A DNA stretch of 29,228 nucleotides from a candidate division WOR-3 bacterium (GTDB lineage: Bacteria; Hydrothermota; Tepidihabitantia; B3-TA06). A program made the position numbers and the translations under genes. The notes beneath the pieces are model-generated. The model was not told the origin of the DNA, ran no database searches, and saw only the letters and a list, made by a program, of their open reading frames with translations. Position 1 is the stretch's first letter. Each line of letters begins with the position of its first letter. Where the stretch lies: the NCBI GenBank assembly GCA_965649265.1, contig CBFGKC010000020.1, forward strand, positions 1-29,228, given 5' to 3'. Below, piece by piece: positions 1-11,482 of the stretch.

Positions 1-2
1 TG

Positions 3-362
3 GCAAAGTTGCTCGTTACATTTTTGAACTTTACCCGAACCGCCTACGGCAACAACGGGCTCCCGCCCGACCAGACAACCGGCCTTTTTAAAAGGGTTGC
101 GGAAAATTTCAGTGACTCACCGGTAATGGTCATTGAAAATGAGTTCCGCATCACCTCGACCTCCTTGCAAAAGGAAAAAATCATCATGGGTTTCGTAGAT
201 TTATTGAAGAAATTCCACGCAGAGCTCGCCCAGATGTGGGGACCAAAGGTTGCATCTTCTCGTTATCACAAGATTTATGATAACTTTCTCAGGGAAACGA
301 AGGGAGACGAGAGAGCGAAAGAGGTTCTTGAATCCGTTGCACCGGAAAGAATCGGCCTCTAG
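3..362 (+). CDS. Small cytoplasmic hypothetical protein (5' truncated by window edge); paralog of 4500..4958
   Basis: Frame is open from the window start. Shares LVT..GLPP...GLF.RV...DSP and G.KV.SSRYH..YD with 4500..4958. Confidence 0.8.
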   Translation, partial: AKLLVTFLNFTRTAYGNNGLPPDQTTGLFKRVAENFSDSPVMVIENEFRITSTSLQKEKIIMGFVDLLKKFHAELAQMWGPKVASSRYHKIYDNFLRETKGDERAKEVLESVAPERIGL

Positions 363-400
363 AAATTACGCAAACTGGAAATTGATTCAAGGAGGAGTTT

Positions 401-1207
401 ATGTCGCGTTCATTTGTCTGGAGCTTGATCGTCTTAGCCGTCCTTTTTCTTCTGACGGCTGTATTTTACGTAATCCCGCCACTTAACGACATCGCCAACA
501 ACACTTTTTACCTTGCTGGGACCATCGTATACCAGGTAGCCCTGCTTATCCCTGTGCTGCTTTTACTCTACGGGTATTCCGGAATTGAGGCTAAATGGAA
601 GGGACGCCGGGGATGGCTGATGGTCCTGCTCGCCATGACTTCTTACTTTGTAGGCGACACGATTTGGAATATTTACGAAACGACCACCATGCTTTCTATG
701 CCGCACCCCGGCCTGGCCGATATCTTCTACGTCATCTTCTACCCGCTGATTGCGCTCGCGATGATTCGTTTCATTCGCGTCGCAGACGTGAAGGTTTCAC
801 CATCGGAAAAACTACTAATAGGCATCGTAGCCGTCCTTCTGGCTGCCGAGGCGATTGGTAGATTCGTGGTTCCCAGCCTTGCCGGGTTCATAAGTGAAGA
901 TTATTCATTATTTGCGCGCATTCTGGACTCCTTCTACCTTCTGTCGGACGTGGCCATTCTTTGCATAGGTCTCATAATCGTCGTCCAATTCTGGGGAGGA
1001 AAGGTCACAACCACTTACATCCTTTTCGTCATAGGAATTTTTGTAATGACCATTACTGACGCGGCTTATGTGTTTGTCTCGGAGAGTTTCGGACTCCGCA
1101 ACCCGCTCGATCTCGGTTGGGCTGCGGCATACAGCCTCCTGGCCCTTGCCGCCGTGTTCGAGCGTTCCCTGCAGGAAACCGCTCGCAAAGGACTCGCAAA
1201 TGCGTAA
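401..1207 (+). CDS. Integral membrane protein (about 7-8 TM), standalone membrane sensor-type domain
   Basis: AAGGAGG RBS upstream and many hydrophobic segments. The GD.IW...P.PGLADIFY..FYP motif is typical of membrane input domains of GGDEF/histidine kinase proteins. There is no output domain. Confidence 0.8.
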   Translation: MSRSFVWSLIVLAVLFLLTAVFYVIPPLNDIANNTFYLAGTIVYQVALLIPVLLLLYGYSGIEAKWKGRRGWLMVLLAMTSYFVGDTIWNIYETTTMLSMPHPGLADIFYVIFYPLIALAMIRFIRVADVKVSPSEKLLIGIVAVLLAAEAIGRFVVPSLAGFISEDYSLFARILDSFYLLSDVAILCIGLIIVVQFWGGKVTTTYILFVIGIFVMTITDAAYVFVSESFGLRNPLDLGWAAAYSLLALAAVFERSLQETARKGLANA

Positions 1208-1904
1208 GATAATATTCTTGATGCTTGCCGTCGCATCCGTTCTCTTTGCCGATCCCTTCAACACTATTTCTGCGAACACCCTGGGCAGGGGCAACGGTTA
1301 TATTGGTCCTTATATTCCTGTTTCATTGTCACTTACAGGTGAGACCGGTTTCGCCACGACCCCGCTTCTCTACATTGGAATTGGACTCGCAGACGTCTTC
1401 GATGTCACCCTTTACGGCGGTGCGACTATTGCAAAAAGTGTTGATTCCACCGGGGCCTCGACTGTTACAGGTGACGATGCTGTGTTTGTTGTGCAGCCAA
1501 AGTTCGAGGTTTTAAAATCGGAAATTGTCACCCTCTCCCCCACATTTGGGCTCGTGATTCCTTTCAAGAACGGCGCGCCGGTCGGGGTCAATCCCGGATT
1601 CCTTACAAGTTTCGATTTTTCGCCTCTTAACCTTCACGCCAACCTCTATTACAACCTCGTTTTCGACGGCTCATACGGCACCGTGTCATTTCTCGCGGCT
1701 CCGGATTTCTGGGTAACCAATAACTTCTCTATTTTCGCGGAGTTAAACGCCTACTACTCGCTCGACGACAAGGAGCTTACGCTCGAAGCCTGGCCGGGGC
1801 TTTGTTATTATCCCATAGATATGCTCTCCATCTGCGCTTCATGCGGCATACCTGCGTCACTTGACTACATTACCCCCGGGCTCGCTCTTTACGTGAATTT
1901 TTGA
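1200..1904 (+). CDS. Probable outer-membrane beta-barrel protein
   Basis: True start is ATG 1200 (MRKIIFLMLAVASVLFA signal peptide), overlapping the upstream stop. Alternating amphipathic strands and C-terminal LALYVNF ending in Phe. Confidence 0.75.
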   Translation: MRKIIFLMLAVASVLFADPFNTISANTLGRGNGYIGPYIPVSLSLTGETGFATTPLLYIGIGLADVFDVTLYGGATIAKSVDSTGASTVTGDDAVFVVQPKFEVLKSEIVTLSPTFGLVIPFKNGAPVGVNPGFLTSFDFSPLNLHANLYYNLVFDGSYGTVSFLAAPDFWVTNNFSIFAELNAYYSLDDKELTLEAWPGLCYYPIDMLSICASCGIPASLDYITPGLALYVNF

Positions 1905-1946
1905 CACCCCAAAAAGACTGCCGGAGGCATTCCTTTTGGGGTCCCC
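1905..1946 (-). repeat. GGGG(T/A)CCCC palindromic element (family 1), reverse orientation
   Basis: Minus strand reads GGGGACCCCAAAAGGAATGCCTCCGGCAGTCTTTTTGGGGTG, directly after a stop codon. Confidence 0.7.
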
Positions 1947-2026
1947 GATGACTTTGCACCCCTCTTTGCACTATAAACTGTTGTTTTGCAACTATTTAGT
2001 GACCAGAAGGTATCTCCGAATGCATT

Positions 2027-2065
2027 AGGTCCCCGAATGAATGCGCAGCAGACGTTCGGGGTGAA
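2027..2065 (+). repeat. Family 1 palindromic element
   Basis: AGGTCCCCGAATGAATGCGCAGCAGACGTTCGGGGTGAA. Confidence 0.75.
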
Positions 2066-2090
2066 GAAGTTGGTCAGAAGTTGGACATTT

Positions 2091-2203
2091 CGGGGCGAAA
2101 AAAGCTGGACAAAAGATGGTCAAAAGATGGACAAAACGGGCATTTTGAGGGTAAAAACAGGGTAAATTCGGGGCGAATTAGGGCGAAATTCGGGTGAAAA
2201 TCG
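2091..2203 (+). repeat. Degenerate tandem repeat with units of about 11 bp
   Basis: GGACAAAAGAT GGTCAAAAGAT GGACAAAAC, followed by GGGTAAATTC/GGGCGAATTA/GGGCGAAATTC/GGGTGAAAATC. Confidence 0.6.
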
Positions 2204-2220
2204 AAAGGTTTCATTCGAAA

Positions 2221-2580
2221 ATCCCCCGGTCTTCGACCACCCCCCTTCAAAAGGGGGGGCATGAAAGTTTCCTCGTAATTTTTGCATGGGGCATGATTCA
2301 GGCAGGTGGGTGTTATTTCCTTTGACAAAAACTGTATATGAGAACGCCCTATGAGATATAGCCATATCTCAAGGGGCGGACCCTGCCCGAAGGGGTACGG
2401 GTGTTGCGGGCCCTCTCCCTTCGGGAGAGGGTTGGGTGAGGGAAACGCATCCCCTTCCCTTGACGGGAAGTGGTTGGAGGCAAGGTAGCGGCTGGGAGCC
2501 GCATGGGCCGAACGATAACGTTCGGCAAACGCTCTTCTAGAGCGTACACCTCCTCCCAGCCTCCCCCATCAAGGGGGAGG
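2221..2580. repeat. Cluster of REP-like GC-rich palindromes
   Basis: Four units: 2221-2260 (CCCCC..TTCAAAAGGGGG), 2411-2442 (CCCTCTCCCTTCGGGAGAGGGTTGGGTGAGGG), 2451-2487, and 2549-2580 (CCTCCTCCCAGCCTCCCCCATCAAGGGGGAGG). Confidence 0.7.
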
Positions 2581-2594
2581 AGAATCAAATGTCT

Positions 2595-4181
2595 CTACCT
2601 TACTATCACGACCTTCCGGGTGATGCCGGAGTTGCTTGCCTGGAGCCGCGCAAAGTAGACGCCTGAGGAGAGTGTCTCGACCTTCACCTCGCCCTGCCCG
2701 CGAACGGTGACGCTCTCAACCATTCTGCCCGATGCGTCGAAGAGCTCGATGGTCCCCGGCTTGCCCTGGCTCAGGGAATAGCGAAGGGTGACCTCCGAAG
2801 CTATGGGAGACGTTATCTCCATTTCTGAGGAGGGCGCGGGTGTTTCTGAGGAGGGCTCGGAGATGCCTGTGCCCTGGCTGTACTTGACGGTGCAGTAATC
2901 CGTCGGTATACCACTTCGCCCCGTAACGTAAACGCCGCCTCGCTTATCCACGGTCAGGTCACAACCGAAATCGAAAGCCTCTGGGCCGACGTAACGTGCC
3001 ACCCATTGTTCAGCACCTTTTGTGTCGTATTTGACAGTCAGATAGTTGTATCCACTCGAACCTGTTATGTAGACACCGCCGTCTCCGCCCACGGTAACGG
3101 CCCTCGCTTCATCTTCCTCGTTGTCGGGCCCATTGTATCGAGCCGCCCAAAGCAGCAAACCTTGAGAGTTGTATTTTAGAACTACATAATCGTTATCCAG
3201 GCTCAAGGAATCCTTGCATGAGCCGGCCACGTAGATATTTCGCGAATCATCCAGGGATATGCCGCACGGTTTGTCGTCCTTGCCCCATGGATCGTTATAT
3301 CGGACCGCCCATAGTTCTTTACCTTGCGAGTTGTACTTCAACGTTACATAATCATAACCGGATATTGAATCCCAGCTCGAGCCGGTGACATAAATATTTC
3401 CCGACTTATCTGAAACGATAGCGCATGCCTGATCATCGCCGTTTCCAGGTCCATTGTACCTGGCAACCCATCGTTCGACGCCAGACCGGTCATACTTCAC
3501 CGTTACAATGTCATTTCCGTTGACTGGATCCCGACTGTAACCGGTGACGCAAACTTCATTTAAAGCATCGACGACCAGGGCTTTTGCTTCTTCCCAACCT
3601 TCCGAAAAACCGCTGTAGCGTGCAACCCATTGCTCACGCCCTTTCGGGCTGTACTTGACGGTTGCATAATCAAAACTGGTGTTTGAATCCCAGCTGTAGC
3701 CCGTGACGTAAACATTGCCTATCCTGTCGACGGCGACGGCAACTGGTATATCTTCCTGGTTTCCAGGACCGTCGTATTGTGCAATCCATTCTTCCTTACC
3801 CTGTGAATCGTATTTCACGGTTACATAGTTCGAGAACGAAGAGGAATCACGACTGTATCCGGTGACGAAAACATTGCCGAAACTGTCCGGCGCAACAGCC
3901 CAGGCACCGTCGTCAAGACCGTCAGTACCGTTGAAACGAGCGACCCATAATTCAAGCCCGTTGGGGTCATATTTGATGGTTGTGAAGTCCGAAAGATTAT
4001 TCGAATCTGCGCTGAAGCCCGTGACAAAGATATTGCCATCATTATCCGCCGCAATATCACACGGGTAATCGATCCAATCGCTGGGCCCGTTGTACCTTGC
4101 CACCCACTCCTCCTTAACCTGGGCGAAAAGCAAAATTGGAATGATTGCGATCATGATTGAAAGAAAACAGATACGTCTCAC
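2595..4181 (-). CDS. Secreted SBBP-repeat beta-propeller protein with T9SS/Por-type C-terminal domain
   Basis: Likely GTG start at 4181 after AAGGAGGAG, with a signal peptide. About 7 repeats of W.ARY.GP....D....D..GNVYVTG.S.....DY.TVKYD. C-terminal LFDASGR...GVYFARL...RKVVIVR. Confidence 0.88.
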   Translation of the reverse strand: MRRICFLSIMIAIIPILLFAQVKEEWVARYNGPSDWIDYPCDIAADNDGNIFVTGFSADSNNLSDFTTIKYDPNGLELWVARFNGTDGLDDGAWAVAPDSFGNVFVTGYSRDSSSFSNYVTVKYDSQGKEEWIAQYDGPGNQEDIPVAVAVDRIGNVYVTGYSWDSNTSFDYATVKYSPKGREQWVARYSGFSEGWEEAKALVVDALNEVCVTGYSRDPVNGNDIVTVKYDRSGVERWVARYNGPGNGDDQACAIVSDKSGNIYVTGSSWDSISGYDYVTLKYNSQGKELWAVRYNDPWGKDDKPCGISLDDSRNIYVAGSCKDSLSLDNDYVVLKYNSQGLLLWAARYNGPDNEEDEARAVTVGGDGGVYITGSSGYNYLTVKYDTKGAEQWVARYVGPEAFDFGCDLTVDKRGGVYVTGRSGIPTDYCTVKYSQGTGISEPSSETPAPSSEMEITSPIASEVTLRYSLSQGKPGTIELFDASGRMVESVTVRGQGEVKVETLSSGVYFARLQASNSGITRKVVIVR

Positions 4182-4226
4182 CTGCTCCTCCTTGAACAAT
4201 GAATGCTCATTATTTTACAATGTTTA

Positions 4227-4254
4227 AGTCTAGCACAAAAGCAATATGTGTCAA
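4227..4254 (-). promoter_or_regulatory. sigma70-like promoter for the SBBP gene
   Basis: TTGACA-16 bp-TAGACT on the minus strand. Confidence 0.65.
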
Positions 4255-4297
4255 GGGGTCTCCCCCTATTTTGGAGGCACCAGGGTTACAACGGTTA

Positions 4298-4352
4298 AGC
4301 ACAATCCATGCACGGTCGGGGTCCCCTGATGCATGCGGGGCAGACGTTTAAG
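4298..4352 (+). repeat. Degenerate family 1 element with AAGCACAATC leader
   Basis: AAGCACAATC...GGGGTCCCCTGATGCATGCGGGGCAGACGTTT. The same leader precedes the copies inside coaE. Confidence 0.6.
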
Positions 4353-4361
4353 AATACAAAC

Positions 4362-4389
4362 TTGACACCCCCCAAGTTTTTTCTATAGT
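4362..4389 (+). promoter_or_regulatory. sigma70-like promoter
   Basis: TTGACA-16 bp-TATAGT. Confidence 0.7.
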
Positions 4390-4499
4390 TGATAGGTAAC
4401 CTAAACCGACAGGAGTGAACGTGGGCACTGGTATATACCAGGTATGGCGTGTCCGCAAGGTTCCGCGCGCAAGTGAAGTGGGAAAAGGCTGATGGTTGA

Positions 4500-4958
4500 A
4501 TGAATGTACTCCATAAGGACGAGGAGTTTCACGTAATTACGCCGGAGACCGACGACGTTATAAGCGGATCGTTACCCAGGGGGCCCCTGCTTGACGCTCT
4601 GGTCACCGTTCTCGAATCCATTTGCAGGTATTATGAAGAGAGCGGTCTGCCTCCAAACATCGTGATGGGGCTTTTCAACCGCGTGACCAGGGTAAGGATA
4701 ACGGATTCACCAATCATTTTCAAGGACAACCGCTTCCAGGCTGCAACCGACGAGAAGGACCCGGAAGTAATACTCGAAACCTTCAAACGGGTACTCTGGG
4801 AACTGCACAAGGCCATGAGCGTGCTGCTCGGGTCCAAGGTAGTCTCCTCGAGGTATCATGACGCTTACGATTTTTGCGTGAAGAAATTCGCCGCCTCCCC
4901 GGCCGAGGCAACCATCATGACCCGAATCCCGCCGGACTACGCGAATATCCAGGGATGA
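4500..4958 (+). CDS. Small cytoplasmic hypothetical protein; paralog of 3..362
   Basis: Motifs shared with the first ORF; ATGA overlap with the next gene. Confidence 0.8.
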   Translation: MNVLHKDEEFHVITPETDDVISGSLPRGPLLDALVTVLESICRYYEESGLPPNIVMGLFNRVTRVRITDSPIIFKDNRFQAATDEKDPEVILETFKRVLWELHKAMSVLLGSKVVSSRYHDAYDFCVKKFAASPAEATIMTRIPPDYANIQG

Positions 4959-5779
4959 AGACGTTTCACGCGAGTCTCTTTAAGAGCTTCTGGTGGGCAC
5001 TCGGGCTTTCCGCAGGGTTATTTGCGATAACCTCGATCTTCTACTACATTCCGCCCCTGAACAATCCGGAGATACTCACATGGCGGCTGGCTGCGGACGT
5101 GGTTTTCGACACCGTAAGCGTGTTCGCGGTACTCCTCCTTCTTTACGGGTGGGCCGGCCTCGATAAAACATGGAAGGGGAAACTCGCGTGGTTCTTGATT
5201 TTCATCAGCGTCAGCGCCCTGGTTGCGGGCGATCTCGCGTGGGATCTTTTCGAGGACATCACGCTCGAGGAAGCTCCCTATCCCGGAGTACCAGATATCT
5301 TCTACGTAGCGGCCTATCCATTCATGGCTGCCGCACTCATCAGGCTTGCACGCATGATGAAGGTCAGGCTCTCTTTATCGAAAAAACTCATACTTGTTTT
5401 TTCGGCGGTCGCGCTCCTGACGCTGGTCACGGTATTCGTGATCATCCCGACCGCGACCGATCCCGACACCGGGTACGGCCTTGGCGAGCGTTTGCTTGAC
5501 GCGTTCTACCCCTTGATGGATGTTGTGCTCGTATGGTTTGCGATACTCCTGCTTCTCGAGTTCTGGGGCGGCAGCGTTCCGACGACCTACGTGCTGCTTC
5601 TGGCAGGAATACTCGTGATGTCCGGGGGCGACGTGTCCTACTTCTTCATATACGAGGATTACGGCTTCCAGAACCCCTTGGACTTGACGTGGCTTTCCTC
5701 GCACTTGCTTCTTGCCCTGGCCGCCGTTCACGAACGCACCCTTCACGCCGAGATAAGGAAAGAACTTGCTGGCCGGTAA
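4955..5779 (+). CDS. Integral membrane sensor-type protein; paralog of 401..1207
   Basis: Start at ATG 4955 (ATGA coupling). Shared motifs FY.IPPLN, WKG, GD..W, PYPGVPDIFY, FWGG.V.TTY, NPLDL.W, AAV.ER.L. Confidence 0.82.
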   Translation: MKTFHASLFKSFWWALGLSAGLFAITSIFYYIPPLNNPEILTWRLAADVVFDTVSVFAVLLLLYGWAGLDKTWKGKLAWFLIFISVSALVAGDLAWDLFEDITLEEAPYPGVPDIFYVAAYPFMAAALIRLARMMKVRLSLSKKLILVFSAVALLTLVTVFVIIPTATDPDTGYGLGERLLDAFYPLMDVVLVWFAILLLLEFWGGSVPTTYVLLLAGILVMSGGDVSYFFIYEDYGFQNPLDLTWLSSHLLLALAAVHERTLHAEIRKELAGR

Positions 5780-5860
5780 AGACCCCGACGCTTTTCTCTA
5801 GCAATCAAGAGTTACTCCCCCTCCCCTGTACAACCCTGAGACGTACCCATTTTATGCCTC

Positions 5861-5888
5861 TTGACAACGCTGACAAAAAGAATATACT
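5861..5888 (+). promoter_or_regulatory. sigma70-like promoter
   Basis: TTGACA-16 bp-TATACT, followed by AGGAGGAG RBS. Confidence 0.7.
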
Positions 5889-5922
5889 TTTATGATTAAA
5901 CATACCTAAATCAGGAGGAGCC

Positions 5923-6792
5923 GTGCGTAAACTGACACCTTTAATTCTTTTATTAGTAAGCGTTCTATGGGGAGACTGGGAAGACCCATTTAATACTTTT
6001 GCGGACTACACACGCAATGTTAAAGCAGACACGTCCATTTTACTTCTCAATCTGGGAAAATCTATGACTGGGGAAACCGTACCACCAGCAATAAAAAAAA
6101 TAAGTTTCGAACCCTCTTTCTCCATAAATATGCCTCTCAACGACACCACTAAAATATCCTTTGAACCTACACTCCATGTAAACTATTCATTGTCGGAAGA
6201 CGTGATTTTTGCGTTAGGAACAACCCTTAAAGAAAACTCACTTCAATCAATCGCCGCATCATTTGATGGTAAGTGGAATTCCTTACTAGGGATAAAAATT
6301 ATTAAACCTACTTTACTTCTGAACTATCAGTATTCAGTTGACACTTCTTCTCGTGGAACAGCCTCTTTCTCAATCTCACCAGGAATAATAAGTACGCTCA
6401 TTGACGCCAAAATATTCTCTCTGGCTCTTTCATTAACTCCAACTTTTTTTTGGACACCAGAGGAATTAACTATACCTATGACACTCGCTATCAAACCTGC
6501 ATTTAAAATCGGAAATGCAACTCTTTACTTCCTTGGAGAAGGTAAAGGGACACCCTTTGACGATAGCTTGAGCCTATCTCTAACATTCACCCCCGCAATT
6601 GAATTTGAGTCGAAGTATCTATCTTCTTTCGGTATCAATGTATCCGTTTCTAATTCTAATGACTCCACATATTTTTCCCCAGCAATAAAATGTTCTCTCG
6701 GTGAAAGTCCAACCACTTTTCTGCTGTCATGCCGTATTCCCCAATCAATGAACAGCTTTGAGCCATGCCTAACCGTTCGTCTCAAATTATGA
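5923..6792 (+). CDS. Probable outer-membrane beta-barrel; distant paralog of 1200..1904; AT-rich
   Basis: Signal peptide then DPFNT in both proteins; both contain LS(L/M)TGET-like and C-terminal SC.IP.S.....P.L motifs. Ser/Thr-rich beta pattern. Confidence 0.7.
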   Translation: MRKLTPLILLLVSVLWGDWEDPFNTFADYTRNVKADTSILLLNLGKSMTGETVPPAIKKISFEPSFSINMPLNDTTKISFEPTLHVNYSLSEDVIFALGTTLKENSLQSIAASFDGKWNSLLGIKIIKPTLLLNYQYSVDTSSRGTASFSISPGIISTLIDAKIFSLALSLTPTFFWTPEELTIPMTLAIKPAFKIGNATLYFLGEGKGTPFDDSLSLSLTFTPAIEFESKYLSSFGINVSVSNSNDSTYFSPAIKCSLGESPTTFLLSCRIPQSMNSFEPCLTVRLKL

Positions 6793-6875: not shown

Positions 6876-7472
6876 TCAGCGTTTTATCACTACGCTTATA
6901 ATCGTGTCCATTGCCCGAAGCTGCCTCACGACAATCATGTCCCTGGAGTTTTCGACCTTGCCGAAAACCACGTAGTCGCCGTCAAGGCTTTTCTGCGCTT
7001 CAAGACAGATGTAGAACTGACAGGAAGCCGAGTTCGGCGCCTGGCTGCGAGCCATACCGACCGAGCCCTTTTCGTGCTTCATGCCCGTTTCCTCGAAATC
7101 GATGGTATAGCCCGAGTTTCCGTAGCCGGTACCTAAAGGATCGCCGCCCTGGATGACGAAACCGGGCTCGTAGCGATGCCACAGGAGACCGTTATAGAAA
7201 CCCGCGTCGGCGAGCCTCACGAAGTTTCGCACTGTCCTGGGGGCTTCACTTGAATAAAGCCTGACGGTGAAGGTCCCCTTGTTAGTGGTGACGACAGCCT
7301 CTTCCTTACCGGTAAGTGTGACTTCCTTGTCCTTCACACGCAGGGCAAGCTCAACGCGTTCCTTCGGCGTGAAATTGAATGTCTGGGGTATCGAAGGTTT
7401 CACCACTCCGGTGCACGCGAGCGCGGCAACGAACGCCGCGGCCGGGACCAGATAGAGTTTAAAAGCTCTCAT
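6876..7472 (-). CDS. Cyclophilin-type peptidyl-prolyl isomerase, lipoprotein
   Basis: AP.TV.NF, GFY.GL.WHRYEPGFVIQGGDP, GMARS, QFYI, LDG.YVVFGKV; lipobox ALAC. Confidence 0.93.
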   Translation of the reverse strand: MRAFKLYLVPAAAFVAALACTGVVKPSIPQTFNFTPKERVELALRVKDKEVTLTGKEEAVVTTNKGTFTVRLYSSEAPRTVRNFVRLADAGFYNGLLWHRYEPGFVIQGGDPLGTGYGNSGYTIDFEETGMKHEKGSVGMARSQAPNSASCQFYICLEAQKSLDGDYVVFGKVENSRDMIVVRQLRAMDTIISVVIKR

Positions 7473-7474
7473 GT

Positions 7475-8056
7475 TTACCTGGTTATCGTTACCGCTCTGA
7501 TTGTATCTCCTGCGCGCAAGGCTTTAACCGCATCCATGCCTTCCAGAACCTTGCCGAAAACGACGTAGCTGCCGTCGAGCCCGTGCTGGGGTTCGAGACA
7601 GATGTAGAACTGGCAGGAGCCTGAGTTGGGATCCTGGGAGCGTGCGACGCCGAGTGCGCCCAGTTCGTGCGTGCGGGCGTTCTTCTCGAAGGGGATGTCG
7701 TAGCCTGCGTCGCCTGTGCCGTTTCCTAAAGGATCGCCGCCCTGGATGACGAAGTTGGGCACGTAGCGGTGCCAGGTGAGGCCGTTGTAGAAGCCTGCGT
7801 CCGAAAGACGGATAAAGTTGGAAACGGTGTTGGGTGCATCTTTCGAGTAAAGCTCGACCACGATGGTGCCTTTATTGGTTTGGATGGTCGCTTTTTCCGA
7901 ACCGCTAAGGGGTATTTCCTTATCCTTCACGCTCAAGGCAAGCTCAATGCGTTCCTTGGGAGTAAGGGTCGATGTGACAGGAATCACGGCCTTCCTCATG
8001 CAGCCCGAGAAGGCAACGACTAAAAGAAAGGCGGTTAGTAATTTTTTTATGTTCAT
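7475..8056 (-). CDS. Cyclophilin-type peptidyl-prolyl isomerase, lipoprotein
   Basis: Same motifs; lipobox FSGC. Confidence 0.93.
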   Translation of the reverse strand: MNIKKLLTAFLLVVAFSGCMRKAVIPVTSTLTPKERIELALSVKDKEIPLSGSEKATIQTNKGTIVVELYSKDAPNTVSNFIRLSDAGFYNGLTWHRYVPNFVIQGGDPLGNGTGDAGYDIPFEKNARTHELGALGVARSQDPNSGSCQFYICLEPQHGLDGSYVVFGKVLEGMDAVKALRAGDTIRAVTITR

Positions 8057-8076
8057 CAGTTCACTTCCCGAAAAAA

Positions 8077-8119
8077 GGTGTGTTACGGGTGGGTGTTACG
8101 GGTGTTACGGGCGGGTTAC
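8077..8119 (-). repeat. CCGTAAC(A) short tandem repeat
   Basis: Minus strand reads TAACCCGCCCGTAACACCCGTAACACCCACCCGTAACACACC, starting at a stop codon. Confidence 0.75.
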
Positions 8120-8763
8120 TGGGCAATGGAGATCTTCTTGATCGTATCGTTAACGCGGATCTTGTTAACGACGTCCATACCCTCGAGCACCTTGCCGAAT
8201 ACCACGTAGTTGCCGTCGAGAGCGTGCGCGGGCGCCAGGCAGATGTAGAACTGGCATGAGCCTGAATTCGGGTCATTGGAGCGCGCGACACCGAGCGCAC
8301 CCAGTTCGTGCGTGCGGGCGTTCTTCTCGAAGTTGATGTTGTAGCCTGCGTCGCCCGTTCCATTGCCTTGGGGGTCGCCGCCCTGGATGACGAAATTGGG
8401 CTCGTAGCGGTGCCAGATGATTCCGTCATAGAAACCGGACTCTGAGAGGCGGATGAAGTTCTTAACGGTATTGGGCGCGTCTTTCGAGTAAAGCTCGGCC
8501 ACGATGGTGCCTTTTGTGGTCTCGATGGTCGCTTTTTCGGTACCCTTGAGGTTAATCTCCGCGTCTTTCACCGATTTGGCAACTTCGATGCGCTGCTGGG
8601 GTGTAGTGAAACCAGATGTGCGCGCTATGCCGAATATTCCCGGCTCGCTTTTAGTCAATTTTGGTGTTTCCACGTTTGGGGTCTCCTCTGTTTTCTTCTG
8701 ACCGCACGAGATGAATGCGGCCGCGACGAATGCGGTTAACGTGATTGCAAGTATCTTTTTCAC
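8116..8763 (-). CDS. Cyclophilin-type peptidyl-prolyl isomerase, lipoprotein
   Basis: Same motifs; lipobox FISC; GTG start after AAGGAGG. Confidence 0.93.
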   Translation of the reverse strand: MKKILAITLTAFVAAAFISCGQKKTEETPNVETPKLTKSEPGIFGIARTSGFTTPQQRIEVAKSVKDAEINLKGTEKATIETTKGTIVAELYSKDAPNTVKNFIRLSESGFYDGIIWHRYEPNFVIQGGDPQGNGTGDAGYNINFEKNARTHELGALGVARSNDPNSGSCQFYICLAPAHALDGNYVVFGKVLEGMDVVNKIRVNDTIKKISIAQ

Positions 8764-9058: not shown

Positions 9059-11482
9059 ATGTTTCCAGGAAGAATAATAGTATTCGCAGGGTTATTCATT
9101 ATGATAGCCGTAGGCTACGCCGGAGAACGATGGTCGCAGGCCCAGTTCGATGATTCATACACCGTCGTCTCACCAGACGGCGGAGGGAAGATCGCTTATT
9201 ACCCCAGGGCCGCATACGCACCAATAGACAGCCTCAACATGCGGCTGGCCGGTTACTATGGTCTCTACCCGGACAATGACCAATTGATAGTTATAGGAAA
9301 TTACCTGTACCTGTCCGCGATGTACGGTTTTGCGGTAATGGATATCGGATCTAACCCGCATTCGCCAGCGATTGTCGCAACGGTAACTAACGGTCCGTGG
9401 TATATTTCAGGTTTTGCCGCTTACGGCAATTACCTTTACGTTATTCAAACTGAAGCCGGTCTTTTTACGTACGATGTCTCGAACCCGCAAAAACCAAGCG
9501 TGGCAAGTCACATTGTTCTGCCCGAACCTTTCGATAGGGCATCACACGGTGTAGTCGTCGGAAACAACCTGTACCTGGTCTGCGAGGATTATGACTATGA
9601 GACCCATCAGAAGATCTCTCAATTGAAGGTTTTTTCCCTCAGCAAACCCTCACAACCTGCGCAAGTCAGCGTTCTCGATTTGCCGGGTTTCACGCAAGTA
9701 GATCGGCTATTTGCGACAGATGACAGCACGCTTGTGATTGCGGGGTTGACGCCCCTTATCGTGAAAGTGAAAATCTCCGATCCCGATGCACCGTCTATCT
9801 CCGCACAGCATAGCTTCTCCGATGATCCCCTCGTTTATTTAGAAAGTTGTTACTATGACACGGATGGCTTTCTTTATTCGTGTTTCATCCAGTTCGACAC
9901 CATCAATTACACGCAATATCATTACCGATTAACTTGCGATATGACTGACTTTTCAAACCCTGTGATAATCGATTCATCATCTATGGGAACAAACTCCGAG
10001 AACTACCTAGGTTTGCTCGGTAAAGATACTCTCATAGTCAGTCGTTCGGACACGATAATTTTTTGTGACATCTCAACGCCCGGCGTGATGAATCGGATCG
10101 CTTACTGGTATAACGGGTCCGCGGGAGCCATCCAACGGGTCATCCCCAATAAAAACGATCTTTTAACCTGCGGAATCTTCTGGGGGCTGCACATACTGGA
10201 CCGAAGCGACATTTCGAATATCAATGATGTATACTCAACTTACGTAGGAGCCGGCTCGCCTTTATCCATATCGGCACCTAAAGAGGGCCGGGTTTTCGCC
10301 ACCTACTGGTGGACTGAAACCGATTACCATGTATATGGCTTCAACAGCACCACAGAAGGACAAATCACTGTTTCCGACAGTCTGATTTTCGAAAGCGGGA
10401 CCGAAATAAGCCATGTCAATAACCTGCTCGGGATTCAAAAGGATAATAACGATATCACTCTTTTCGATGTAACCACCCCCGGAAAATACGACTCCGTCGG
10501 TCGAACCGGTTGCACTTTTTTTCGATATAACAGGTTCAATTCCGAAGGAAACAAGCTTTATCTGGCATCCTGCTATCATTGGTATGGAAATGGGTGCATG
10601 GCGGTTCTGGATGTTTCAAATCCAGCCTCGTGCAGCTTGCTGGCCATGAAAAATCTTAACGGACCATGTTGCGACATCTGTCACCACGGCAGCTATGTAT
10701 ACGTTACCGGCGAAGACACCGCAACCGGCAAGGGATATCTCGAAACGTATTCGCTTACGGGAAGCAATCTCGAGAAGACATCCTCCATCGGACTGGATGA
10801 GGAAGGACTGGGCTTGTGCCGCGTCGGGGATCGCCTTTACTTGTCGCGTTACAACGCACTGGAGATTTTCGACTTATCTGATCCCTCAAAACCCGCGTTT
10901 CTGGGAATGACGGACAGCATCATCAGCGGCAATACCGAGATTCTGGGCAGTGGTGGTCGAAACGACGATGTCATCGCGTCGGGAAACAGGGTGTACGTGG
11001 CGAGCGATGAGGAGCTGGTTGCCTTTGACGTGACCGATCCTGCATCGCCGCTCGTGGTCGGCTACTACATTATACCCAACCAAGCTTCGTGGACCGCTGA
11101 TCTTCGCCAGAGATTGCGTTCCGACGGTAACCTTATCTACTGGTCTACCATGGCTTACGGCATCTGCGTGATTGACCCCTACGCAGACGCCGAGATGGTG
11201 GCCGAAAAACCTGCCCAGAATCCAATGCGATTGGGGCTCGATGTAAACCAAAGCCTGGGACAGGGATGCGTGATAAAGTACACCTTGCCCTTCCGGTCTA
11301 ATGTCGAGATTTCTGTCTACGACGCATCCGGCCGCTTGGTCGAGGTTTTGAGAGCCGCTCGTGAGACCGCAGGCACTCACCACTTCACATGGGATGCCGA
11401 CGGAGTGTCCTCAGGCGTCTACTTCGTGAGGTTAGCGACCGATGCGGGATCGGTAACCACGAAGCTTTTAGTACTGGATTAA
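9059..11482 (+). CDS. Secreted LVIVD-repeat beta-propeller protein with T9SS/Por-type C-terminal domain
   Basis: Signal peptide; repeats of GNYLYV....GL..(Y/F)DVSNP.KP; C-terminal VYDASGRLV...W...GVSSGVYFVRL...TKLLVLD. Confidence 0.88.
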   Translation: MFPGRIIVFAGLFIMIAVGYAGERWSQAQFDDSYTVVSPDGGGKIAYYPRAAYAPIDSLNMRLAGYYGLYPDNDQLIVIGNYLYLSAMYGFAVMDIGSNPHSPAIVATVTNGPWYISGFAAYGNYLYVIQTEAGLFTYDVSNPQKPSVASHIVLPEPFDRASHGVVVGNNLYLVCEDYDYETHQKISQLKVFSLSKPSQPAQVSVLDLPGFTQVDRLFATDDSTLVIAGLTPLIVKVKISDPDAPSISAQHSFSDDPLVYLESCYYDTDGFLYSCFIQFDTINYTQYHYRLTCDMTDFSNPVIIDSSSMGTNSENYLGLLGKDTLIVSRSDTIIFCDISTPGVMNRIAYWYNGSAGAIQRVIPNKNDLLTCGIFWGLHILDRSDISNINDVYSTYVGAGSPLSISAPKEGRVFATYWWTETDYHVYGFNSTTEGQITVSDSLIFESGTEISHVNNLLGIQKDNNDITLFDVTTPGKYDSVGRTGCTFFRYNRFNSEGNKLYLASCYHWYGNGCMAVLDVSNPASCSLLAMKNLNGPCCDICHHGSYVYVTGEDTATGKGYLETYSLTGSNLEKTSSIGLDEEGLGLCRVGDRLYLSRYNALEIFDLSDPSKPAFLGMTDSIISGNTEILGSGGRNDDVIASGNRVYVASDEELVAFDVTDPASPLVVGYYIIPNQASWTADLRQRLRSDGNLIYWSTMAYGICVIDPYADAEMVAEKPAQNPMRLGLDVNQSLGQGCVIKYTLPFRSNVEISVYDASGRLVEVLRAARETAGTHHFTWDADGVSSGVYFVRLATDAGSVTTKLLVLD

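Follow-up and report, generated by a model that had tools for sequence, protein, structure and literature searches.

The window analysed here, a stretch of 29,228 nucleotides (nt) from a candidate division WOR-3 bacterium, starts at the first base of contig C20 (CBFGKC010000020.1) and opens with a region (1-6792) of six open reading frames (ORFs), all on the + strand and arranged as A1-B1-C1 followed by A2-B2-C2, where A stands for a soluble protein, B for a membrane protein and C for a secreted protein. With a probability put at roughly 0.55, the conserved unit of this region is a split sensor encoded by A and then B, in which the soluble A reads a membrane protein B devoid of output domain, C being placed outside the module. 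An earlier description of the same DNA (hereafter the sequence-only reading) had listed these six ORFs, their order and the two copies, all of which are present. It had also proposed a three-component unit, of which the A-B linkage stands, with A as the likely transducer, and the barrel as third component is not supported.

The linkage between A and B was followed across genomes, the genome of the window being coded G000 and the others G001 and so on. In all seven loci where DNA upstream of B can be seen, from two phyla, the gene immediately preceding B on its strand is an A gene, with a spacing ranging from a 4-nt overlap to 56 nt. Conversely, no A gene with visible downstream DNA is without B. 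Two of the seven loci belong to G000, two to G001 and three to Dictyoglomota metagenome-assembled genomes (MAGs; L077, L076 and L090). Through two B relatives (E 1e-40), three MAGs of Dictyoglomota were reached: in L077, B is preceded, 15 nt away, by an A-type ORF of at least 288 amino acids (aa) that matches P0164, a 331-aa protein of the public collection, with an E-value of 4e-30 over 245 aa; in L076, the final 79 aa of A are visible, also ending 15 nt before B; as for L078, its sequence begins at B and is uninformative on the upstream gene. L090 is a second, complete pair, located in mid-contig in the same genome as L077, with A (340 aa) and B (253 aa) 1 nt apart, and with hidden Markov model scores of 3e-37 for the N-terminal part of A, 4e-15 for its C-terminal domain and 1.6e-30 for B. 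This pair is flanked by glutamine synthetase and chromate-transporter genes, with neither C nor the ODP gene discussed below.

The A profile detected G000 and G001 only, plus two marginal rows at 17.8 and 15.8 bits; for the B2 query, the count was 2 of 41 relatives. The gene order in G001 is ferritin-like, ODP, short A, B, long A, B and C1, the short pair being without C. The genome of the window has just two A-B copies. Across six pairs, the identities of the A C-terminal domain follow those of B (r 0.88, reached by three of 720 permutations), which fits inheritance and duplication as a pair, but kinship alone can produce such a value. The sequence upstream of the window, which the sequence-only reading had singled out as a possible site of a kinase, a cyclase or further copies, was located on contig C26 and gives the head of A1 and an ODP cluster.

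In the window, the first pair consists of A1 (3..362, +; 5' open), the C-terminal 119 residues of a 331-aa soluble protein, including the conserved C-terminal domain with G.KV.SSRY, and of B1 (401..1207, +), a 268-aa membrane protein of a sensor-type eight-helix family with no output domain. The two genes are 38 nt apart, with AAGGAGG 5 nt ahead of the B1 ATG. The second pair consists of A2 (4500..4958, +; 152 aa), a short form equivalent to the C-terminal domain of the A family only, and of B2 (4955..5779, +; 274 aa), a paralog of B1 with eight helices in its model. A start/stop overlap had been reported for each copy, and both were found: the B2 start overlaps the A2 stop by 4 nt (ATGA), and the C1 start overlaps the B1 stop by 8 nt (ATGCGTAA). 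A promoter-like site (TTGACA-16-TATAGT, 11/12) is present at 4362..4389 (+), about 110 nt upstream of A2; the scan relied on consensus only and returned 14 sites vs. 6.6 expected in shuffles.

A1 and A2 share 31% identity over 113 aa (E 5e-19), and B1 and B2 42% over 265 aa (E 1e-68). Of the three gene pairs, which had all been described as sharing motifs, those of A and B are true duplicates, and homology is not shown for the third. The long pairs of G000 and G001 are orthologs (61% for B, 54% for the A domain); the short pairs of these two genomes are only 35% alike and are therefore old or separate paralogs.

Concerning B, the protein ends right after its last helix and has no output domain, as the sequence-only reading had stated. 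The B2 model has eight helices (pLDDT 82.6, pTM 0.84). A profile of five B proteins, B1 among them, was run against 1.84 billion representatives and gave 6163 matches at E <= 1e-3, 1436 at E <= 1e-10 and six at E <= 1e-30. Leaving out the query, the best 149 matches divide into 76 proteins of more than 350 aa and 73 that stand alone; the long ones align over profile positions ~40-255, with E-values of 1e-17 to 1e-22. A domain scan covered 74 of the 76 long matches, the two longest being dropped for a size limit, and found GGDEF in 37, EAL in 22, HATPase_c in 20 and HisKA in 16 of them, with PAS in many. The earlier statement that GGDEF or histidine kinase outputs are normally attached to the PxPxxADxFY membrane domain was right in kind, and too general in view of the stand-alone half. 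A protein of 525 aa (P0019) carries two tandem B-type modules and no other domain, and has no Pfam family.

The membrane part of 75 short B-type proteins matched no Pfam family, apart from stray single hits. When MASE1-MASE5 (Pfam) were compared with the 75 stand-alone members, one matched MASE3 (E 3.6e-4); B1 and B2 matched none of the five. In the Atlas, B falls into unnamed clusters at 0.96 (Cyanobacteriota, Nitrososphaerota, Chloroflexota), the MASE3 and MASE4 clusters reaching only 0.78-0.79. No match was obtained with the 75-row B profile against PDB sequences, with B2 alone or P0016 alone against genome contigs, or with the B model in Foldseek at E <= 1e-3. Judging by its sequence relatives, B is a member of a very large superfamily of membrane sensor modules that is unnamed in Pfam.

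The motif P-x-P-[GS]-x-x-D-x-x-Y is situated at the start of helix 4. Its residues P108, P110, G111, D114 and Y117 are invariant in the five closest B proteins, and its P and D in the 74 long matches. Since Lys and Arg abound in the loops after helices 2 and 4 and each terminus is basic, both ends of B would be inside the cell. With such a topology, PYPG..D..Y, D..YP..D and E.YG..NPLD would be exposed at the outer face of B, and the inner face would carry the WGG loop and the end of helix 8 with its HER.LH. Residues 34-274 superpose on seven-helix receptor bundles with Z-scores of 10-12.8, which helical bundles can also reach by chance. Sensory rhodopsin II with HtrII, and G protein-coupled receptors with G proteins, are helical receptors without output that are read by a separate protein. 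B is similar to them in this superposition, within its chance range, and A-B in the logic of a receptor plus a separate reader; unlike them, B has neither a retinal-binding lysine context nor a sequence relation, and A is soluble, unlike HtrII.

B could also be a small transporter or a membrane enzyme (acting on a cation, for instance), with A as its cytoplasmic regulatory or assembly subunit. The conserved D93, D114, D189, D226, E234 and D243 and several W and Y, which cluster at helix ends, would suit such a function, as would the stand-alone half of the best 149 matches and the surroundings of the pairs, with iron and oxidative-stress genes in the window's genome and chromate-transporter genes in L090. 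This explanation is nonetheless quite unlikely: the module is N-terminal in at least 58 of the 74 long matches (the 37 with GGDEF, 20 more with HATPase_c and one with HD), a pattern that marks an input domain, no transporter family was matched in Pfam or NCBIfam, and the fold search returned receptor-like seven-helix bundles, albeit at Z-scores within the chance range.

According to a preprint (bioRxiv 10.1101/2021.11.05.467447), MASE1-MASE12 are named membrane-associated sensor domains of bacterial signalling proteins. The B module is like them in its 6-8 helices, in its conserved aromatic and charged residues within or close to the membrane and in its position before GGDEF, EAL, HD-GYP or kinase outputs. 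It differs from them in that B consists of the module and nothing else, and has a dedicated soluble partner encoded beside it. A comparison with Pfam sets B apart from MASE1-5, the only members of the series that it covered.

As for A, the N-terminal 185 residues of A1 are encoded at G000:C26:555-1, running off the start of contig C26, and P0164 is 97% identical to A1 over the 119 residues present in the window. A1, previously described as a small cytoplasmic protein, is in fact the end of a longer one (331 aa) that the contig start truncates. Members of the A family are either long (331-340 aa) or short (~130-150 aa); the short form retains only the conserved C-terminal domain (~125 residues), with the G, S, R and Y of G.KV.SSRY invariant. 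In the model of the long form (pLDDT 71.4, pTM 0.47), residues 1-104 and 116-194 make up alpha/beta domains and residues 206-331 a helical domain with a hairpin.

None of the six proteins of the region matched Pfam (E <= 1 for B1 and B2) or NCBIfam, and PADLOC returned 0 families at E <= 0.01. The A model gave no Foldseek hit at E <= 1e-3, a four-row A profile gave only four chance rows in a PDB sequence search (E 0.56-0.85), and the C-terminal domain had no family or fold match. In the Atlas, A falls into unnamed clusters at 0.86-0.89, below the level that counts as a hit. Among the VIA structure matches of the A model, a phage baseplate protein (Z 6.9) and H-NOX (Z 5.8 and 4.6) were considered unconvincing.

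The N-terminal half of long A points to the DUF2226 and DUF4388 families. Three of the four long forms matched DUF4388 (PF14332) with 21.0, 22.5 and 17.2 bits, for a cut-off of 25 bits, and one had no match; none was found for the Dictyoglomota A. DUF2226 (PF09987) had no direct match in any A protein. When the four long forms were compared with genome contigs, the sole match was a 387-aa Syntrophorhabdus protein homologous to their N-terminal half (hhalign probability 96.8%, E 2.6e-10). This relative matches DUF2226 with 41.2 bits (1.8e-10) over residues 1-117, aligned to A residues 1-117, and DUF4388 with 26.7 bits (6e-6), in each case above the cut-off. Its gene follows those of a DUF4388 protein and of an sCache-HAMP membrane protein without output, near a protoglobin kinase gene; a second locus with this arrangement is from the same organism (metagenome contigs). 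Homology between the C-terminal domain of A and the C-terminal part of the Syntrophorhabdus protein was rejected (hhalign 0.2%).

The Syntrophorhabdus cluster (L014:2138-9221) encodes a protoglobin histidine kinase, a B12-binding radical SAM enzyme, a DUF4388 protein, the sCache-HAMP protein without output, the DUF2226-DUF4388 protein and a TPR protein, and it represents another output-less membrane sensor adjoining PATAN-like proteins. In the genome of the window (2.7 Mb), 14 DUF4388 matches were counted, 13 of them over the cut-off, as well as three GGDEF matches. Neither T2SSE (PilB/PilT) nor MCPsignal matches were found in this 96% complete genome; the known partners of PATAN domains and of ODP were therefore not found in it.

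PATAN domains act by protein-protein contact, according to a preprint (bioRxiv 10.1101/2021.06.11.447907). Through its N-terminal half, which is related to DUF4388 and DUF2226 below the Pfam cut-off and via an intermediate, long A resembles PATAN regulators such as the PatA-type response regulators, which bind the type IV pilus motor in Synechocystis. Unlike these, A has no receiver domain and carries an unmatched C-terminal domain, and its genome is without T2SSE match.

In the proposed split sensor, B would be located in the inner membrane and perceive a signal in the membrane or at its periplasmic face, and A would supply in trans the missing cytoplasmic part. The C-terminal domain of A may dock on the cytoplasmic face of B, and the long A would relay the signal by protein-protein contact, via its two N-terminal DUF2226/DUF4388 (PATAN)-related domains. 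The short A may modulate this relay or compete with it. The homologies, the A-B gene linkage, the eight-helix architecture and the lack of an output domain are established; the docking of A on B, the way in which the signal travels, its ligand and the target further down are putative. In this genus, the pairs would have been inserted into an oxidative-stress cluster after ODP, and they may take ODP input or share its regulon.

Several points weigh against this scheme. The DUF4388 match of A is below the cut-off in the three long forms concerned (22.5 bits at best vs. 25), the DUF2226 link runs only through an intermediate protein, and the A model is of middling confidence, its best structural match (Z 6.9) being unconvincing. 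Elsewhere in the genome, 13 further DUF4388 genes stand apart from multi-helix membrane genes, and A-B is therefore no general PATAN rule. P.PG..D..Y is missing in the Dictyoglomota C62 copy of B, so this motif is not essential to the B family. The sensor role of the module is suggested by its fusion partners, none of its members having a known ligand. The physical contact between A and B is putative; the prediction of the A2-B2 complex scored 0.28 and 0.18 vs. a mark of 0.32, with alignments of eight and six rows and without controls, and these scores favour neither side. Finally, the B1/C1 overlap suggests that C1 is co-translated with the first pair here, with a possible local functional tie.

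The third genes, C1 (1200..1904, +) and C2 (5923..6792, +), are neighbouring secreted-protein genes and not parts of the module. C1 (234 aa) has a signal peptide ending in ..VLFA, followed by DPFNT, and a C-terminal ..YVNF, leaving 217 mature residues, and is probably an outer-membrane beta-barrel. One of seven C1-family members matched a Phenol_MetA_deg-like family (PF13557) with an E-value of 0.0099 and 16.4 bits, for a cut-off of 22; a seven-row C1 profile found 0 relatives among PDB sequences, and the eight alternating-hydrophobic runs of C1 were reached by 37 of 500 shuffles. C2 is a secreted orphan of 289 aa with a GTG start preceded by a strong AGGAGG, a signal peptide and DPFNT. It lies in a stretch of GC 0.40, 143 nt after B2, and a promoter-like site (TTGACA-16-TATACT, 11/12; 5861..5888, +), from the same consensus scan, is located in this gap. 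No homolog of C2 was found in the 272 genomes of the phylum nor in a 5.8-billion-protein collection.

C1 and C2 are 27% identical over 115 columns, with 26% gaps (E 4e-4), at the N-terminus only, i.e. over the signal peptide, the DPFNT motif and the first strands. The C1-family profile matched C2 with a probability of 65% (E 6e-5) when the signal peptide and DPFNT were included and of 6% (E 0.006) when they were removed; because of this fall, barrel homology between C1 and C2 is not shown.

C1 homologs were detected in nine of the 272 genomes, all in the window's own family, and seven of these nine are without A or B, with the queries used. The context of C1 was taken from four of these seven (G002, G003, G004 and G006). 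In G003 and G006, ferritin-like and rubrerythrin genes immediately precede the C1 homolog, and the cyclophilin genes of the window recur nearby; C1 was therefore in place before A-B arrived. In G002 and G004, those neighbours are not beside C1, save the cyclophilins in G004. C1 belongs to an old neighbourhood in the sister genus of G003 and G006, and only in the window's genus do ODP and the A-B pairs stand between the ferritin-like gene and C1. Four of the seven A-B pairs have no C at all, namely the second (short) pair of G001 and all three Dictyoglomota pairs.

These data bear on the sequence-only view of barrel C, membrane B and soluble A as one trans-envelope signalling or uptake unit, duplicated and diverged in specificity. 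In its favour, a secreted-protein gene follows each A-B copy in the window, C1 overlaps B1 here and is 17 nt from it in G001 (B1'-C1'), and C1 and C2 have DPFNT just past their signal peptide in common. Against it, C1 mostly occurs without A-B (with the queries used) and, from its place in G003 and G006, predates the pairs, C2 is a homolog-less gene with its own promoter-like site, more than half of the A-B pairs lack C, and the resemblance between C1 and C2 is confined to the N-terminus. No conserved co-occurrence of the trio was found in other genomes, an outcome that the sequence-only reading had itself named as contrary to its proposal. Such a unit is largely refuted by this distribution and is very improbable; the idea of a system spanning the envelope loses its support together with the barrel as third component. 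In trans-envelope signalling of the TonB-dependent transducer/FecR/FecI type, outer-membrane, inner-membrane and cytoplasmic proteins cooperate, and genes for a probable outer-membrane protein, an inner-membrane protein and a cytoplasmic protein are clustered here as well. The present case differs in that C is not conserved with A-B, that no TonB-dependent receptor, anti-sigma or sigma match was found and that C1 has only 217 mature residues.

The surroundings of the pairs in this genus are those of an oxidative-stress cluster. In both G000 and G001, an ODP-family di-iron gene (PF19583; 146.5 and 152.4 bits, respectively, for a cut-off of 27.2) immediately precedes the first A gene and has its orientation. 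On C26, the genes ahead of A1 include, besides ODP, a rubrerythrin-like gene of the ferritin fold and, further on, a rubrerythrin-like gene whose product was named through its 75-76% identity to the copies of sister genera. A gene that we take, from its protein sequence, to be thiol-peroxidase-like is also present upstream of A1. The ODP proteins of G000:C26:823-1929 (-) and L005:4404-5501 (-) extend ~140 residues past the Pfam domain (which ends at ~226), with no family match for this extension; its homology to the C-terminal domain of A was rejected (hhalign 0.3%). Proteins of similar length that score strongly with a whole-length profile of the two ODPs occur in nine other genomes of the phylum, where they measure 367-383 aa in seven and 420-422 aa in two, as well as in Dictyoglomota. 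In L067, L068 and L071 (G116, G119 and G118), which represent one family of the phylum, the ODP ortholog lies beside a conserved trio of genes for proteins of 781-783, 122 and 384-387 aa, on the opposite strand in all three; from the look of their first residues, the 122-aa and 384-387-aa proteins are presumably of Roadblock/MglB type and a PilT-type ATPase.

Placed beside ODP, the A-B pairs could be transducers of an ODP that senses O2 or Fe(II), in replacement of its chemoreceptor partner. According to PMC7319448 (summarising Muok et al. 2019), ODPs are sensors recruited to varied signalling pathways via operons or fusions, and ODP works with a chemoreceptor partner in Treponema denticola and Thermotoga maritima. 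The situation here is similar in that the ODP gene is directly upstream of a candidate transducer gene, in both genomes of the genus and within a ferritin-like/rubrerythrin cluster, and this known partner is missing in a genome without MCPsignal. It is dissimilar in that the partner would be no chemoreceptor and that the adjacency is confined to one genus. Ten ODP regions of other genomes of the phylum, nine of them with full-length orthologs, gave no match to A, B or C at E <= 1; in the Dictyoglomota genome G273, the ODP homologs are on other contigs than the two A-B pairs, and no A or B was found in the stretches around ODP. Moreover, G004 has kept the ferritin-like and ODP genes without A-B, the ODP-A1 gap is 267 nt in G000, and the ODP extension is unrelated to the A domain. 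A coupling to ODP is thus a minority reading, which may apply to one genus only and is on the whole unlikely.

Concerning the other genes of the window, the two A-B copies are separated by an unrelated gene (2595-4199, -) with SBBP beta-propeller repeats and a Por_Secre_tail sorting domain; another gene (9059-11482, +) has LVIVD beta-propeller repeats and a C-terminal Por_Secre_tail. From this tail, both products would be cargo of type IX secretion. Downstream of C1, the ~690 nt that lead up to the SBBP gene (1905-2594) contain only short overlapping ORFs of 59-84 aa, and a terminator-like hairpin is found at 2253-2274. Three tandem paralogs of 198, 193 and 215 aa, with signal- or lipoprotein-like N-termini, are encoded at 6876-8763 (-). 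The first is a cyclophilin-type prolyl isomerase (Pfam, 133.7 bits), and these genes recur in the 14-kb stretches around the C1 homologs of the sister genomes G003, G004 and G006.

Among the relatives of B, a distant stand-alone branch (Coriobacteriia and Eubacteriales MAGs) shows a soluble gene of ~75 aa that abuts or overlaps the B-type gene in two of three loci: it ends 2 nt before the B start in L072 (2702-2935) and overlaps B in L073 (2645-2959), and no match to it was found in L074. The two proteins are 50% identical, and a protein of this kind is fused to B in P0049 (residues 1-75; one gene call). They were rejected as A homologs (hhalign 0.05%).

Few inputs of bacterial signalling are as poorly understood as membrane-embedded sensor modules. 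The B family has thousands of members, about half of the closest ones being output-less, and is modelled in neither Pfam nor NCBIfam. In narrow literature searches (DUF2226, DUF4388/PATAN, MASE6-9), no description of a dedicated soluble partner for a MASE-like module was found, and the search on DUF2226 itself returned nothing; the searches being narrow, the claim of novelty for such a partner is weak. It is tentatively proposed that A and B represent an undescribed prokaryotic pair, a seven- or eight-helix receptor without output that would be read non-covalently by a PATAN-like transducer, and that the thousands of stand-alone relatives may likewise each have a partner acting in trans, such as the A family or the ~75-aa Coriobacteriia protein. 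If true, this would be a bacterial counterpart of receptor-plus-transducer logic. A false lead has been removed at the same time, since no three-part trans-envelope system is present here. The unannotated A family receives its first context, the N-terminal half of its long form being tied to the little-studied DUF2226 and DUF4388 families, and the conserved partner gene offers a concrete and testable answer to the question of how output-less sensors could signal.

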